Shown here piece by piece: positions 6,384 to 10,842 of a DNA stretch of 64,000 nucleotides. The translations under genes were made by a program, and so were the position numbers. The notes under the pieces are model-generated. The model ran no database searches and was not told the origin of the DNA. It worked only from the letters and a program-made list of their open reading frames with translations. Position 1 is the stretch's first letter. Each line of letters opens with the position of its first letter. Origin of the DNA: Escherichia coli (lineage in GTDB: Bacteria; Pseudomonadota; Gammaproteobacteria; Enterobacterales; Enterobacteriaceae); NCBI RefSeq assembly GCF_003334315.1, contig NZ_QOWR01000020.1. One strand, written 5' to 3'.

Positions 6384-7373
6384 ATGAACAAGTGGGGCGT
6401 AGGGTTAACATTTTTGCTGGCGGCAACCAGCGTTATGGCAAAGGATATTCAGCTTCTTAACGTTTCATATGATCCAACGCGCGAATTGTACGAACAGTAC
6501 AACAAGGCATTCAGCGCCCACTGGAAACAGCAAACTGGCGATAACGTGGTGATTCGTCAGTCACACGGTGGTTCAGGCAAACAAGCGACGTCGGTAATCA
6601 ACGGTATTGAAGCTGATGTTGTCACGCTGGCTCTGGCCTATGACGTGGACGCAATTGCGGAACGCGGGCGGATTGATAAAGAGTGGATCAAACGTCTGCC
6701 GGATAACTCCGCACCGTACACTTCCACCATTGTTTTCCTGGTGCGTAAGGGCAATCCGAAGCAGATCCATGACTGGAACGATCTGATTAAACCGGGTGTT
6801 TCGGTGATCACGCCTAATCCGAAAAGCTCTGGTGGCGCACGCTGGAACTACCTGGCTGCCTGGGGCTACGCGCTGCATCACAACAACAACGATCAGGCAA
6901 AAGCACAGGATTTTGTTCGGGCACTGTATAAAAACGTCGAAGTTCTGGATTCTGGCGCGCGCGGCTCCACTAACACTTTTGTCGAGCGCGGGATTGGCGA
7001 TGTACTGATCGCCTGGGAAAACGAAGCTCTGCTGGCAGCGAATGAACTGGGGAAAGATAAATTCGAAATCGTCACGCCGAGTGAGTCTATCCTCGCAGAG
7101 CCAACCGTGTCGGTGGTCGATAAAGTGGTCGAGAAAAAAGGTACTAAAGAGGTGGCGGAAGCCTACCTGAAATATCTTTACTCGCCAGAAGGTCAGGAAA
7201 TTGCAGCGAAAAACTACTATCGTCCGCGCGATGCTGAGGTGGCGAAAAAGTACGAAAATGCGTTTCCAAAGCTGAAGTTATTCACCATTGATGAAGAGTT
7301 CGGCGGCTGGACGAAAGCGCAAAAAGAGCATTTTGCTAACGGCGGTACGTTCGATCAGATCAGCAAACGCTGA
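6384..7373 (+). CDS. sbp: Periplasmic sulfate-binding protein (329 aa)
   Basis: Signal peptide [19 protein letters not shown]; length and sequence match Sbp. Confidence 0.95.
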
Positions 7374-7393
7374 TTTCTCCAGGATAATTATCA

Positions 7394-7426
7394 AACCCGG
7401 TGGTTTCTCGCGACCGGGTTTTTTAT
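7394..7426 (+). terminator. Intrinsic terminator downstream of sbp
   Basis: Hairpin AACCCGGT...ACCGGGTT followed by TTTTTAT. Confidence 0.65.
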
Positions 7427-7479
7427 TTGTCACGATTTTGCGTTACCCTTGCATCTCTTTGAGGTACAGGGAAAAAAAG

Positions 7480-8235
7480 ATGAAAAAAGCGGGTCTTCTT
7501 TTTTTGGTGATGATAGTTATCGCCGTTGTGGCTGCCGGTATTGGTTACTGGAAATTAACCGGTGAAGAGTCGGATACATTACGTAAGATTGTCCTTGAGG
7601 AATGTTTGCCCAATCAGCAGCAAAATCAAAATCCTTCGCCATGTGCGGAAGTCAAACCCAATGCCGGATACGTGGTTTTAAAAGATCTTAATGGCCCACT
7701 GCAATATCTGTTGATGCCAACGTATCGTATTAACGGAACTGAAAGTCCTTTGTTGACCGATCCTTCAACGCCGAACTTCTTTTGGTTGGCCTGGCAGGCG
7801 CGTGATTTTATGAGCAAAAAATACGGTCAGCCGGTTCCCGATCGCGCGGTTTCTTTGGCGATCAACTCCCGCACCGGGCGTACGCAAAACCATTTTCATA
7901 TTCATATCTCTTGTATTCGTCCTGATGTGCGCGAACAACTGGATAAAAATCTGGCGAACATCAGCAGCCGCTGGTTGCCACTGCCAGGTGGTTTGCGCGG
8001 GCATGAATACCTGGCGCGTCGGGTAACGGAAAGCGAACTGGTACAACGCAGCCCATTTATGATGCTGGCAGAAGAAGTACCTGAGGCGCGGGAACATATG
8101 GGAAGCTACGGGCTGGCGATGGTGCGGCAGAGTGATAATTCGTTTGTGTTGCTGGCGACACAACGAAATCTACTGACACTTAACCGTGCTTCAGCCGAGG
8201 AAATTCAGGATCATGAGTGTGAGATTTTGCGTTAA
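7480..8235 (+). CDS. cdh: CDP-diacylglycerol pyrophosphatase (251 aa)
   Basis: ORF-track 7288..8235 extends upstream across the sbp terminator; start trimmed to ATG giving [20 protein letters not shown]. Confidence 0.92.
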
Positions 8236-8257
8236 GGCGAAGAGTTAAGGAAAGTAA

Positions 8258-8280
8258 GTGCCGGATATGAAATCCGGCAC
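8258..8280. terminator. Hairpin between convergent cdh and tpiA (possible bidirectional terminator)
   Basis: GTGCCGGAT-ATGAA-ATCCGGCAC perfect stem; flanking U-tract is weak. Confidence 0.45.
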
Positions 8281-8289
8281 CTGTCAGAC

Positions 8290-9057
8290 TTAAGCCTGTT
8301 TAGCCGCTTCTGCAGCTTTAACGATCACTGCGAAAGCGTCAGCTTTCAGAGAAGCACCGCCAACCAGCGCGCCGTCGATGTCTGGCTGAGCAAACAGTTC
8401 TGCAGCGTTAGACGCATTTACAGAACCGCCGTACTGAATGATCACTTGTTCAGCGATGTTAGCGTCAACTTTAGCGATGTGGTCACGAATGAATTTGTGA
8501 ACAGCCTGTGCCTGAGCCGGAGTTGCAGATTTGCCAGTACCGATTGCCCATACAGGTTCGTAAGCGATAACCGCACCTTCGAATGCCGCAGCACCCTGAG
8601 TTTTCAGTACCGCGTCGATCTGACGTGCGCAAACTTCTTCAGTTTTGCCCGCTTCGTTTTCAGCTTCGGTTTCACCGATGCACAGAACCGGAGTCAGGCC
8701 CTGCTCTTTCAGCACCGCGAATTTTTTCGCGATCAGTTCGTCAGACTCTTTGTGGTAAGTACGACGTTCAGAGTGGCCGATGATGATGTACTGTGCGCCG
8801 ATGTCTTTCAGCATAGCGGCAGAGGTTTCACCGGTGAATGCGCCGGACAGGTTCAGGTCCACGTTTTGCGCACCCAGCATGATGTGGCTGCCTTCAGCTT
8901 CGCGCTTCGCCATATCGATGTACATTTCCGGTGGTGCGATTGCAACCGCACAGCCAGCAACACCTGCCAGCTCTTTACGCAGGTTAGAAACCAGCTCGTG
9001 AACCATGTGGCGGCTGCCGTTCAGTTTCCAGTTACCCATCACTAAAGGATGTCGCAT
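8290..9057 (-). CDS. tpiA: Triosephosphate isomerase (255 aa)
   Basis: [16 protein letters not shown]-terminus; catalytic HSERR and [11 protein letters not shown] motifs. Confidence 0.97.
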
Positions 9058-9164
9058 TTTAATTCTCCACGCTTATAAGCGAATAAAGGAAGATGGCCGC
9101 CCCGCAGGGCAGCAGGTCTGTGAAACAGTATAGAGATTCATCGGCACAAAGGCTTTGCTTTTTG

Positions 9165-9764
9165 TCATTTATTCAAACCTTCAAGCGATTCAGATAGCGC
9201 CAGCTTAATCGGTTCAACAGCGAAGGTCAGCCCCTTTTCGCCGTTGTCCGCGACAACATAACGCAGTGCACCTTCTGTCTCGGTGTAATAACGTTTGTTT
9301 TTCCCCGCCGTTAGTAGCGACTGCAGTTTTTTCTGGCTTTGTGTTTTGGTCATTAATGGGGTGAGTGTGCGGATCACTGCTGCCATGTATTCCTGAGCTT
9401 TCGCTTTCGCGGCTTTTTGCTCTGGCCCCTGGATGGGTAGCCAGGTCATTTGAATGCTTTTGATTTTTAAGGTACCGCGCTCCAGCGCTGTAGAAGCATA
9501 CAAGTTCTCGTTAATTTTACTTGCAGCACGAGTGAGATTGGCTTTGTCGGGACTGCTGTCGATGGCACGAAATTCGTTCAGTGGCAGGCTAGGATTCTGG
9601 CTGTTAAAGTCTTCTCGAAACTGGCTGATGGAGAGATCGAAAGTAGGGGCTCCAGCCAGCAGATAAGGCGCGGTCGTTGCCGTATCTGGTGTTTGTGCAT
9701 GCGCCGTTGTTGTAACGGTTAATGCAGAACATAAGAGAAAAAACAGCGTACACCCTGGCTTCAT
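9165..9764 (-). CDS. yiiQ: Uncharacterized secreted protein YiiQ (DUF1454), 199 aa
   Basis: Signal peptide MKPGCTLFFLLCSALTVTTTAHA; synteny. Confidence 0.88.
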   Translation of the reverse strand: MKPGCTLFFLLCSALTVTTTAHAQTPDTATTAPYLLAGAPTFDLSISQFREDFNSQNPSLPLNEFRAIDSSPDKANLTRAASKINENLYASTALERGTLKIKSIQMTWLPIQGPEQKAAKAKAQEYMAAVIRTLTPLMTKTQSQKKLQSLLTAGKNKRYYTETEGALRYVVADNGEKGLTFAVEPIKLALSESLEGLNK

Positions 9765-9864
9765 TGACAGTACCTTTTGTTATGACTGGCTCCGATTAAA
9801 ACGATATCTGTCGCCCTTGTCAAAAGGGTAGAATCCTGGAAAAGACAACCATCAAGGAACTTAC

Positions 9865-10305
9865 ATGACCATACAGCAATGGTTATTCTCATTTAAAGGG
9901 CGTATTGGACGCCGTGATTTCTGGATTTGGATAGGCCTGTGGTTCGCAGGCATGCTGGTGCTTTTCTCACTGGCGGGTAAAAATTTACTCGATATTCAGA
10001 CCGCGGCGTTTTGCCTTGTGTGCTTGCTCTGGCCAACAGCGGCAGTAACCGTTAAGCGCTTGCATGATCGCGGACGTTCCGGGGCATGGGCATTTCTGAT
10101 GATTGTGGCGTGGATGCTGCTGGCGGGTAACTGGGCGATTTTACCGGGTGTCTGGCAATGGGCGGTGGGGCGTTTTGTCCCGACGTTGATTCTGGTGATG
10201 ATGCTTATCGATCTTGGTGCGTTTGTTGGCACACAAGGCGAAAATAAATATGGTAAAGATACCCAGGATGTGAAGTATAAAGCCGACAATAAATCAAGTA
10301 ATTAA
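9865..10305 (+). CDS. yiiR: Inner-membrane protein YiiR (DUF805), 146 aa
   Basis: Hydrophobic ORF with several TM segments; synteny. Confidence 0.88.
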   Translation: MTIQQWLFSFKGRIGRRDFWIWIGLWFAGMLVLFSLAGKNLLDIQTAAFCLVCLLWPTAAVTVKRLHDRGRSGAWAFLMIVAWMLLAGNWAILPGVWQWAVGRFVPTLILVMMLIDLGAFVGTQGENKYGKDTQDVKYKADNKSSN

Positions 10306-10516
10306 CCTTTAATATATCTCTTACTGCTATTTTTTTCCGGGATTGTTATTTCCACGATGCAAATGACAATGCCCGGAAAATCCTTCTGAACTCTTCACCT
10401 TAAGCAATATCAAAAAAAATGGTAATCCATAAGATCATTACTTGTTTGTTCTTCCCTTAACGGCGCATTATTCTTAAGTCGTAATCGACAGAGAGGCGAA
10501 TATACAGAGGTGCCCT

Positions 10517-10816
10517 ATGAAAGATGTCGTAGATAAATGCAGTACTAAAGGATGTGCGATTGATATCGGTACGGTGATTGATAACGACAACTGTACCAGT
10601 AAGTTTTCGCGCTTTTTTGCCACCCGCGAAGAAGCAGAGTCCTTTATGACCAAACTGAAAGAGCTTGCCGCCGCTGCATCCTCTGCAGATGAAGGGGCCA
10701 GCGTGGCCTATAAGATTAAGGATCTGGAGGGGCAAGTTGAGCTTGATGCGGCCTTCACCTTCTCATGCCAGGCCGAGATGATTATTTTTGAGTTATCACT
10801 GCGTTCGTTAGCTTGA
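10517..10816 (+). CDS. yiiS: Uncharacterized protein YiiS (DUF406), 99 aa
   Basis: Intact ORF immediately upstream of uspD; synteny. Confidence 0.85.
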
Positions 10817-10842
10817 TGGAGTTGCTTTAGAAGGAGTTAAAC

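Follow-up and report, generated by a model that had tools for sequence, protein, structure and literature searches.

The interval between tpiA and fpr of Escherichia coli holds three genes, yiiQ, yiiR and yiiS, in front of the stress gene uspD, which raises the question of whether these genes belong together, and what their products may do. A sequence-only reading had presented yiiQ, yiiR and yiiS as a run of three conserved genes without assigned biochemical function, and had suggested that yiiS may be co-transcribed with uspD. Both points are addressed here in a window of 64,000 nucleotides from E. coli contig NZ_QOWR01000020.1, the window being the whole stretch of DNA that was analysed.

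Organization of the yiiQ-uspD interval

Genes of the interval and of its far boundary are positioned as follows.

9165–9764, minus strand: yiiQ, 199 aa, DUF1454 (open reading frame and RefSeq annotation)
9865–10305, plus strand: yiiR, 146 aa, DUF805 (open reading frame and RefSeq annotation)
10517–10816, plus strand: yiiS, 99 aa, DUF406 (open reading frame and RefSeq annotation)
10843–11271, plus strand: uspD, 142 aa, universal stress protein D, the downstream member of the cassette described below
11276–12022, minus strand: fpr (ferredoxin-NADP+ reductase), convergent with uspD, far boundary of the proposed cassette insertion

In RefSeq, identical DNA is annotated with the same yiiQ, yiiR, yiiS and uspD, and the region is held, with 95–100% identity, in all complete E. 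coli genomes (5426/5426). The three y-genes are intact and already catalogued members of the E. coli core genome. According to gene coordinates, stop codons of uspD and fpr are 4 nt apart. Families named earlier for the three products (DUF1454, DUF805 and DUF406) are borne out by Pfam matches, and the gap between yiiS and uspD is indeed 26 nt, with the yiiS TGA at 10814–10816 and the uspD ATG at 10843. The statement that the three genes have no assigned biochemical function also stands: NCBIfam offers DUF names only, the literature searched holds no function, and entries in the PDB are limited to structural-genomics structures of YiiS. PADLOC defence-system models gave 0 matches for YiiQ, YiiR and YiiS, and PHROGs only weak ones (E = 4e-4 and 7e-3). 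A scan of positions 8000–12500 with Rfam at E ≤ 1 found nothing, which leaves the 211-bp spacer between yiiR and yiiS free of known sRNAs and riboswitches.

The divergent genes yiiQ and yiiR

YiiQ matches PF07305 (DUF1454) over residues 9–192 (E = 2.7e-92) and, as read from its sequence, has a hydrophobic N-terminus ending in AHA before Q, with MKPGCTLFFLLCSALTVTTTAHA as the predicted signal peptide and Q as the residue that follows. It is a full-length DUF1454 family member, predicted to be exported (periplasmic). The AF2 model has a pLDDT of 65, falling below 50 in residues 1–37. A PAS-like fold, with a five-stranded antiparallel sheet and helices at its flanks, was considered as a candidate for YiiQ. 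Identity to Salmonella and Citrobacter homologues is 82–85%, and the family was seen only in Enterobacterales, reduced-genome symbionts included. YiiR, which matches PF05656 (DUF805) over residues 7–131 (E = 9.5e-19) and contains four hydrophobic segments at about 19–37, 44–62, 75–93 and 104–122 (Kyte-Doolittle, mean hydropathy at least 1.6), is a predicted four-helix DUF805 inner-membrane protein. There are no NCBIfam models for YiiQ or YiiR, and no sequence relatives of either in the PDB. In the libraries and literature searched, no characterised member of DUF805 or DUF1454 was found, nor any functional study in the literature on DUF805, yhaH, yhaI and yfcZ.

Two non-coding features accompany this pair.

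9765–9864, no strand assigned: putative divergent promoter region of yiiQ and yiiR, 100 bp by gene coordinates
9096–9113, minus strand: GC-rich hairpin resembling a terminator, located between the end of yiiQ and the tpiA start, from a consensus scan

The hairpin is a pattern match only, with a stem of 7 bp that includes 6 GC pairs; it suggests that simple read-through from yiiQ into tpiA is disfavoured. In Salmonella (L014) and Citrobacter koseri (L015) the two genes are equally divergent, and yiiQ/yiiR is very probably an older divergent pair, enclosed by tpiA and fpr. That the two stay adjacent in three genera, all closely related, might indicate that an exported and a membrane protein act together as an envelope-related pair, a best guess that we regard as doubtful.

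Transcription and stress regulation of yiiS and uspD

The junction of the two genes is short.

10817–10842, plus strand: yiiS-uspD spacer of 26 nt, with the uspD Shine-Dalgarno sequence GAAGGAG at 10830–10836

No terminator-like hairpin was detected in a scan of this spacer, and no sigma70-like site in a scan within yiiS. A yiiS-uspD unit has been defined through work on YdeO, by ChIP-chip, EMSA, RT-qPCR and a lacZ fusion; when YdeO was overexpressed, yiiS and uspD were induced more than threefold (log10 values of 0.72 and 0.70, respectively), while yiiR was unaffected (PMC4222967). The two genes also form a single joint entry of the sigmaE regulon, with an induction of 5.1 for uspD versus 1.8 for yiiS (PMC2731931), and yiiS has been employed to report sigmaE activity (PMC6941253). 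Since yiiS is not named in the main text of Rhodius 2006, sigmaE membership is cited here from the later papers. Binding of GadX and AppY to the yiiS-uspD region has been published, as has acid induction of yiiS and uspD, and one published summary lists uspD as dependent on sigma70 and ppGpp, whether shown or predicted.

The literature searched offered no direct mapping, by RT-PCR or Northern, of a transcript that spans the yiiS-uspD junction. As expected of a bicistronic operon, the two genes lie on the same strand, are separated by a short terminator-free spacer, are co-regulated, and are conserved in adjacency. Their co-transcription, based on co-regulation and spacer anatomy, is consistent with published data, and the cautious suggestion made from the sequence agrees with the single unit in print (PMC4222967, PMC2731931). 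Independent transcription combined with the absence of a stress-related phenotype had been named as evidence that would speak against the suggestion; what has been published is a single unit, together with a yiiS knockout implicated in general acid resistance (PMC4918353). Both the yiiS-uspD unit and its link to stress are therefore already known. In print, the two genes are handled as one unit that is driven from sequence upstream of yiiS; their expression rises under envelope stress, through sigmaE, and with YdeO, GadX and AppY, AraC-type regulators of acid stress.

The stronger sigmaE induction of uspD than of yiiS, and the review-level statement on sigma70 and ppGpp, actual or predicted, could also be taken as signs that uspD is expressed mainly from its own promoter, and that it adjoins yiiS simply because the two were acquired together. 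One Salmonella contig, which carries a UspD-like gene (65% identity) without DUF406, would fit the same explanation. We consider it rather unlikely, as YdeO induces both genes equally, the 26-nt spacer has no terminator, the scan of yiiS gave no sigma70-like site, and the pair is still together in a copy diverged to 57–63% identity (see below).

The spacer between yiiR and yiiS

Three features were delimited in the sequence upstream of yiiS.

10333–10380, plus strand: stable hairpin formed by an inverted repeat, 28 nt 3' of the yiiR stop
10388–10414, plus strand: sigmaE-type promoter motif GAACTC-N16-TCAAA, a pattern match upstream of yiiS
10420–10478, plus strand: conserved block upstream of yiiS, from alignment of Escherichia, Kluyvera and Klebsiella upstream regions

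The hairpin folds as RNA with −22.8 kcal/mol (z = −5.35), and its arms show compensatory changes among the window, another E. coli (L016) and E. albertii (L017). Its 5' flank is a T-run and its 3' flank an A-run, so that neither strand reads as a canonical intrinsic terminator. The sigmaE-type pattern (GGAACTT-N16-TCAAA type) has 3 matches in the window versus 1.2 expected, which is weak alone, and the −35 part of the motif at 10388–10414 is not conserved in L016 or L017. The block at 10420–10478 accompanies yiiS-type genes into other genomic contexts. RNAalifold applied to the conserved yiiS leader gave zero pairs and no consensus RNA structure, so a structured cis-regulatory RNA at this leader is unsupported. 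The published YdeO box (ATTTCA inverted repeat with a spacer of 9–21 nt) could not be convincingly located by eye between yiiR and yiiS. A paper on riboswitch entropy that names yiiS was set aside, its window being 3.2 kb away.

Origin and distribution of the yiiS-uspD cassette

The tpiA-fpr interval was compared in Escherichia, Salmonella and Citrobacter. In the Salmonella and C. koseri loci the order is glpX-fpr / yiiR / yiiQ-tpiA, with neither a DUF406 nor a Usp gene between fpr and yiiR; fpr is followed by a REP-like spacer of about 75–105 bp, and then by yiiR. For a wider survey of DUF406, a 13-sequence alignment was used in a scan of 100,044 species genomes, and the best 80 of 520 loci were examined. 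Among these 80, UspD adjoins DUF406 only in E. coli and E. albertii. UspD scores 328.2 bits with the NCBIfam equivalog NF007436 (cutoff 203) and remains under the cutoffs of the UspA and UspC models, and its orthologs hardly occur outside Escherichia and Shigella. Among the loci compared, the yiiS-uspD cassette occupies this site in Escherichia alone; it is very probably a separate acquisition, inserted between yiiR and fpr in that lineage.

The YiiS-UspD module was seen beside fpr and, as a second copy, beside asrABC. The diverged copy, located 3' of asrABC, encodes a YiiS-like protein with 63% identity and a UspD-like protein with 57% identity; gene order and strand are as in yiiS-uspD, the spacer is 29 nt long, and the four cysteines described below are retained. 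Unlike yiiS-uspD, this pair (E. coli/Salmonella island, L096 and L100) is accessory, comes after an Fe-S/siroheme sulfite reductase operon, and is flanked by IS and prophage-like genes. Its genomic island is rare, being present in 4 of the 5426 E. coli genomes. With a Serratia YiiS-type paralog that adjoins a different Usp gene, there are three settings in which DUF406 and Usp genes are paired. In Klebsiella and Kluyvera, YiiS-type genes stand without a Usp neighbour, and the YiiS-Usp partnership is thus not obligatory. The unit published as part of the sigmaE, YdeO, GadX and AppY regulons is this very locus, with nothing that differs; cassette origin, the asrABC-linked copy and the cysteine motif are not discussed in the yiiS-uspD literature.

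A run of three genes, as described earlier, implies that yiiQ, yiiR, yiiS and uspD make up one stress locus, co-regulated and serving one pathway. Such an arrangement would agree with their physical adjacency in every E. coli genome (5426/5426), and with genomic SELEX, in which a minor sigma factor gave a peak around yiiQ/yiiR/yiiS. However, yiiQ runs opposite to the other genes, YdeO raises yiiS and uspD and leaves yiiR unchanged, Salmonella and Citrobacter keep yiiQ/yiiR without yiiS/uspD at the site, YiiS-type genes exist elsewhere without yiiQ or yiiR, and the conserved hairpin lies between yiiR and the yiiS promoter region. We find a single stress locus extremely improbable, and the grouping into a run of three has to be abandoned. 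The interval very probably consists of two evolutionarily and transcriptionally separate pieces of the core genome, yiiQ/yiiR and yiiS-uspD, and not of a three-gene unit.

YiiS and its paralog YfcZ

YiiS matches PF04175 (DUF406) over residues 6–96 (E = 1.7e-28), as well as the NCBIfam models PRK09981 (198.5 bits, cutoff 130) and TIGR00743 (129.5 bits, cutoff 71.45). A neighbour-joining tree shows a clean bipartition into 16 YiiS-type and 65 YfcZ-type sequences. YiiS is a cytoplasmic DUF406 protein and a diverged paralog of YfcZ (E. coli b2343; YfcZ/YiiS family, DUF406/UPF0381), with which it shares the Pfam family, length, beta-alpha-beta-beta-alpha domain, and residues C8, C13, C26, C84 and E87. 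Identity between the two is about 40–46%. In YfcZ and other YfcZ-type proteins, a CCC triplet and C61 bring the number of cysteines to seven, whereas YiiS has four, and the invariant N-terminus of YiiS differs from that of YfcZ. The two also differ in genomic setting: YfcZ is anchored between fadL and fadI-fadJ across Enterobacterales, while YiiS adjoins uspD, in Escherichia only. The fadL / DUF406 / fadI-fadJ arrangement was observed in about 60 of the best 80 DUF406 loci (520 in total), and among these 80 no YfcZ-type gene has a Usp neighbour. No E. coli genome lacks yfcZ. P0281 and P0295, long proteins in which DUF406-like stretches occur several times, were rejected as tandem-repeat or FG-GAP-like false positives.

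Structure of YiiS and its conserved cysteines

The PDB entry 2K3I, which is YiiS of Shigella flexneri, matches residues 1–99 (E = 9.8e-60). Strands (27–34, 62–70 and 73–81) and helices (37–54 and 85–98) of the AF2 model agree with the NMR topology, and the top Foldseek matches of the YiiS model are 2K3I and 2KHD. In the search against the 2026 PDB significance was reached only by the protein's own family; generic ferredoxin-like matches also came up, below significance. YiiS is a small ferredoxin-like domain that follows a flexible N-terminal Cys tail. Structures of the family, 2K3I, 2JZ5 (VPA0419) and 2KHD (VC_A0919), are of apo, reduced proteins. In the NMR work, the VPA0419 construct was made without residues 1–16, and YiiS was kept in 10 mM DTT, with residues 1–28 disordered. 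As the N-terminal Cys region was deleted or disordered, these structures are no test of a metal or redox site.

Cysteines C8, C13, C26 and C84 are invariant in 81 enterobacterial DUF406 members; by type, their conservation is 100% in YiiS-type and 97–100% in YfcZ-type sequences. Among YiiS-type sequences, column identity is 88% in the first 26 residues versus 57% in residues 27–83. No cysteine is universal in the 35 most diverse family representatives (C84 in 31, C13 in 28, C26 in 24 and C8 in 14 of the 35), among which D22, E87, F82 and F91 are near-invariant. Secondary-structure order, which informs on topology only, places residues 26, 61 and 82–84 at one end of the A-C-B sheet. In the mechanism that we favour, C8 and C13 of the tail would join C26 and C84 of the sheet end, beside the near-invariant E87, in a putative metal, Fe-S or thiol-redox site, and YiiS would act with UspD as a small stress-protection module. 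Both the metal/redox chemistry and the physical YiiS-UspD partnership are what we infer, and the mechanism as a whole, though favoured, is put forward tentatively.

The near-invariance of D22, E87, F82 and F91 would be equally compatible with a ligand site or a site of acid/base catalysis, which the NMR authors put forward because the structure is similar to PCD/DCoH (pterin-4a-carbinolamine dehydratase). On their proposal, YiiS would be a small enzyme or ligand-binding protein that acts through the acidic surface around E87, and the cysteines would be incidental. Of the 35 most diverse members, at least 90% retain E87 and D22, more than retain any cysteine, and the NMR paper reports a superposition on DCoH with 2.8 Å over 70 residues. 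PCD/DCoH shares with YiiS the small alpha/beta architecture and a conserved patch at the equivalent surface, but the two are 11–12% identical and the PCD catalytic residues are absent from YiiS. The NMR authors themselves reported these residues as not conserved, and PCD is missing from the Foldseek top 50; YiiS was therefore rejected as a PCD. The same two observations weigh against a role of the E87 surface, which moreover leaves unexplained an invariant, otherwise disordered N-terminal Cys motif, and we judge it unlikely.

Resemblance of the fold to RRM/S10-type domains, along with the generic ferredoxin-like Foldseek matches, would suit a cofactor-free adaptor of ferredoxin/RRM-like type, binding RNA or protein and modulating UspD or another partner directly; the three settings of DUF406-Usp pairing could be explained in this way as well. 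Yet the exposed face of the sheet is neutral to slightly positive, RNA-binding residues are not conserved, and a Usp neighbour is missing for YiiS-type genes of Klebsiella and Kluyvera and for all YfcZ-type genes, which makes an adaptor quite improbable. If the favoured cysteine site is extended to the family, DUF406 (YiiS and YfcZ) may represent a gamma-proteobacterial Cys-ligated metal/Fe-S/thiol-redox family, in which YiiS-UspD would be a transferable stress module of two genes and YfcZ would serve anaerobic fatty-acid oxidation (fadL, fadIJ). Structural genomics would have overlooked the site, as the N-terminal Cys motif was either cut off or studied in a reduced, metal-free state. We offer this extension as a speculative possibility.

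Significance of the locus

As originally stated, the lead offered by this interval is minor, because the y-genes are catalogued and stress regulation of yiiS-uspD is in print. Added here are the Escherichia-only site of the cassette, its asrABC-linked copy, the paralogy with YfcZ, and the cysteine motif. They provide sharper hypotheses for YiiS and YfcZ, both of them y-ome proteins that all E. coli genomes encode. To our knowledge, the biochemical role of UspA-class proteins is a question that has stood since their discovery, and the recurrent DUF406-Usp pairing is a rare handle on the role of one such protein.

Organization of the locus

A 3.3-kb query around yiiQ-uspD found a match in all 5426 of 5426 complete E. 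coli genomes, with 95-100% identity, and the window is E. coli chromosome. RefSeq annotation of the matching DNA lists tpiA, yiiQ, yiiR, yiiS, uspD and fpr. The genes considered here are:

9165-9764, minus strand, yiiQ (ORF list; Pfam DUF1454, 2.7e-92)
9865-10305, plus strand, yiiR (ORF list; Pfam DUF805, 9.5e-19)
10517-10816, plus strand, yiiS (ORF list; Pfam DUF406, 1.7e-28)
10843-11271, plus strand, uspD (ORF list; NCBIfam)

The mechanical ORF list reproduces exactly the gene coordinates of the sequence-only reading, and Pfam upholds its three DUF assignments. YiiS and UspD exceed the curated equivalog cutoffs of NCBIfam, in which no model was matched by YiiQ or YiiR. The proposed close spacing of yiiS and uspD is also borne out, the stop codon of the first being 26 nt from the start codon of the second, with GAAGGAG inside the gap. 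What has to be abandoned is the description of yiiQ, yiiR and yiiS as a single run: yiiQ lies on the opposite strand, a point absent from the sequence-only reading, and Salmonella and Citrobacter keep yiiQ and yiiR without yiiS-uspD. The feature is real and ordinary, and its genes are known y-genes.

At the other end, uspD and fpr are convergent, with stop codons 4 nt apart (window 11269-11278). This gap leaves no room for terminators, so the 3' ends of both transcripts should overlap. Upstream of the locus are cdh (CDP-diacylglycerol diphosphatase, 7288-8235) and sbp (6384-7373). The mechanical ORF of cdh takes a TTG start that precedes the annotated ATG by 64 codons (annotated gene 756 bp), and was rejected as a feature, being an ordinary over-extension.

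Insertion of yiiS-uspD and distribution of DUF406 genes

In Salmonella and Citrobacter koseri, the gene order is glpFK-glpX-fpr, divergent yiiR/yiiQ, and tpiA. The gap between fpr and yiiR holds just a REP-like spacer of ~ 75-105 bp, and no DUF406 or Usp gene is present there in either. The palindromic spacer found in place of yiiS-uspD is located at L014:4367-4471 in the Salmonella locus (GCCGGATAAGGCG...) and at L015:4379-4453 in the Citrobacter locus (CCCGGTGGCGCTG...CTTACCGGGCC). This arrangement identifies yiiQ and yiiR, as judged from comparative gene order, as the older pair and yiiS-uspD as an insertion.

A DUF406 alignment scan of one genome per species in 100,044 species gave 520 confirmed loci, and the neighbourhoods of the best 80 were classified by tblastn. 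Among these 80, UspD accompanies the DUF406 gene only in E. coli and E. albertii. In ten Kluyvera/Klebsiella loci, a YiiS-like gene (55-63% identity) stands in an unrelated neighbourhood. Another ~ 60 show the order fadL / DUF406 / fadI-fadJ, with fadL divergent, which is the position of the yiiS paralog yfcZ (e.g. L037:3297-9000). The yfcZ gene was found in all E. coli genomes, and UspD orthologs are essentially restricted to Escherichia and Shigella. In K. oxytoca (L013:4001-7810), the YiiS-like gene has a nucleoside hydrolase on one side and, on the other, a TonB-dependent receptor with a YncE-like gene after it; the other Klebsiella loci (L020-L027) probably have the same neighbourhood. 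One non-enterobacterial context (L003-L005) retains the fadL neighbour and lacks fadIJ.

YiiQ and YiiR

The N-terminus of YiiQ is signal-peptide-like, and the mature protein, in which long stretches are invariant, shows 82-85% identity to its Salmonella and Citrobacter counterparts. Its structural neighbours in AFDB50 are exclusively DUF1454 proteins of Enterobacterales, including the symbionts Sodalis, Serratia symbiotica and Fukatsuia, which have reduced genomes. This distribution hints at a housekeeping function in the envelope. YiiR contains four hydrophobic segments, and a search for informative relatives found none. In the literature, yiiQ is named in a Salmonella desiccation screen and yiiR among the unknowns of an antibiotic-allele screen; no other published hints on the two were found. 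A functional pairing of YiiQ with YiiR, suggested only by a divergent arrangement kept in three related genera, seems unlikely.

Regulation of yiiS-uspD

Possible co-transcription of yiiS and uspD had been proposed, and their co-regulation as one unit is already in print; the link is therefore known. YdeO occupies the DNA upstream of yiiS both in vivo and in vitro, its overexpression raises yiiS and uspD equally (log10 0.72 and 0.70) and leaves yiiR unaffected, a yiiS-lacZ fusion is activated by overexpressed YdeO, and the authors of that study give yiiS-uspD as one transcription unit (PMC4222967). In the sigmaE regulon the two genes form a single entry, based on three independent data sets (PMC2731931), and yiiS has been employed as a sigmaE reporter (PMC6941253). 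Control of yiiS by GadE/GadX has been described, and a yiiS knockout has been implicated in general acid resistance (PMC4918353). An AppY ChIP peak is located at yiiS, and both genes go up upon acid shift. Neither independent transcription of the two genes nor lack of a stress phenotype emerged from these reports, and direct transcript mapping over the yiiS-uspD junction was not found in the literature.

A sigmaE-type motif, GAACTC-N16-TCAAA, is present at 10388-10414, the pattern alone being weak (3 matches in the window vs 1.2 expected). At its -35, GAACT (10388-10392) gives way to CAATG in L016, another E. coli, and to TCATA in L017, an E. albertii, and the -10 TCAAA is kept. Either this sigmaE-type promoter is polymorphic, or the true sigmaE promoter of yiiS is elsewhere. 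Downstream of the motif, a block of ~ 60 nt (10420-10478) is common to YiiS-type genes of Kluyvera and Klebsiella despite their differing neighbours. It is preceded on its 5' side by a perfect TATAAT in Klebsiella, compared with TATCAA in E. coli, and no consensus RNA structure was found in it.

One further element lies between yiiR and yiiS:

10333-10380, stable hairpin 28 nt past the yiiR stop codon (-22.8 kcal/mol, z = -5.35)

Compensatory changes in its arms occur among three Escherichia sequences (E. coli lineages and E. albertii). A canonical intrinsic terminator was ruled out, as the hairpin has a T-run on the 5' side, an A-run on the 3' side, and no 3' U-tract on either strand.

Proposed functional coupling of DUF406 and Usp genes

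A second DUF406-Usp pair came to light through the small number of diverged UspD-like proteins. In it, a 99-aa DUF406 gene (63% identical to YiiS) is followed, after a 29-nt spacer, by a Usp gene (57% identical to UspD):

L096:4672-5423; L097; L098; L100:7001-7771, diverged DUF406-Usp pair in E. coli/Salmonella loci

This pair occurs in 4 of the 5426 complete E. coli genomes and in some Salmonella. It comes immediately after asrABC (anaerobic sulfite reductase), and the island that carries it also contains IS elements and prophage-like genes. In TUM1880 its DUF406 gene is unannotated, and the BLAST match there is in two pieces.

A second DUF406 paralog, whose N-terminus is YiiS-like, is present in Serratia (L056:2591-6001, L074). 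A UspA-class gene is oriented divergently from it, and an EvgA-like response regulator (206 bits, under the 251-bit cutoff) lies ~ 1.8 kb away. The latter neighbour deserves attention because in E. coli the EvgAS-YdeO cascade controls yiiS-uspD. The paralog is followed by an uncharacterized 99-aa ORF and an MdtJ-like SMR transporter.

Pairing kept at ~ 60% identity and its independent occurrence in Serratia are together a stronger argument for functional coupling than the 26-nt gap is. Against an obligatory link are the Klebsiella and Kluyvera YiiS-type genes without a Usp neighbour, as well as a UspD-like gene that stands alone in one Salmonella contig.

Two metagenome ORFs are apparent fusions, DUF406-Usp (P0320, 210 aa, 99% identity) and DUF805-Usp (P0369, 143 aa, 64% identity). 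Both are probably frameshift or assembly artefacts, although P0369 could represent a yiiR-usp junction that lacks yiiS.

Conserved cysteines of YiiS

A profile-free exhaustive search of 1.84 billion representatives retrieved just 77 at E<=1e-3, including fragments and 2 false positives, and DUF406 is by this measure a small gamma-proteobacterial family. A neighbour-joining tree of 81 enterobacterial sequences splits cleanly into 16 YiiS-type and 65 YfcZ-type proteins. Residues C8, C13, C26 and C84 are conserved in 100% of the former and 97-100% of the latter, which have in addition two cysteines beside C13 (a CCC triplet) and one at 61, i.e. 7 per ~ 98 residues. Within the YiiS-type, residues 1-26 have a column identity of 0.88, vs 0.57 for residues 27-83, and residues 1-16 are identical among Escherichia, Kluyvera and Klebsiella.

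The NMR structure of Shigella YiiS (2K3I), matched over all 99 residues (E=9.8e-60), has a common alpha/beta fold and a disordered N-terminus. The conserved segment is the one disordered by NMR, and the AlphaFold model gives pLDDT <50 for residues 1-21. Strands are modelled at 27-34, 62-70 and 73-81; combined with the sheet order A-C-B of the NMR paper, this topology would bring residues 26, 61 and 82-84 to the same sheet end, beside E87, where the last helix begins. Our preferred mechanism would be a cysteine-ligated metal, Fe-S or thiol-redox site, offered as a possibility that falls short of probable. Such a site would have escaped notice, since the samples for NMR had 10 mM DTT added and were free of transition metal, and residues 1-16 were missing from the Vibrio construct. 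The main counter-evidence comes from the 35 most diverse DUF406 members, which share no universal cysteine, yet have at least 3 each. The NMR authors drew an analogy with pterin-4a-carbinolamine dehydratase and proposed a site for an unknown ligand at a conserved patch around Glu89 (E87 here). The best-conserved polar residues among DUF406 members are D22 and E87, and this ligand or enzyme idea accounts for them equally well. Foldseek against the current PDB found nothing past the DUF406 family and generic ferredoxin-like folds (CutA1, E about 0.1).

To the published yiiS-uspD link, this analysis adds a corrected anatomy of two separate modules in place of a three-gene unit, an insertion history of yiiS-uspD, and another copy of the two genes, linked to asrABC. 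It further adds the YfcZ paralogy, anchored at fadL-fadIJ, and a testable hypothesis of a cysteine site that YiiS may carry.
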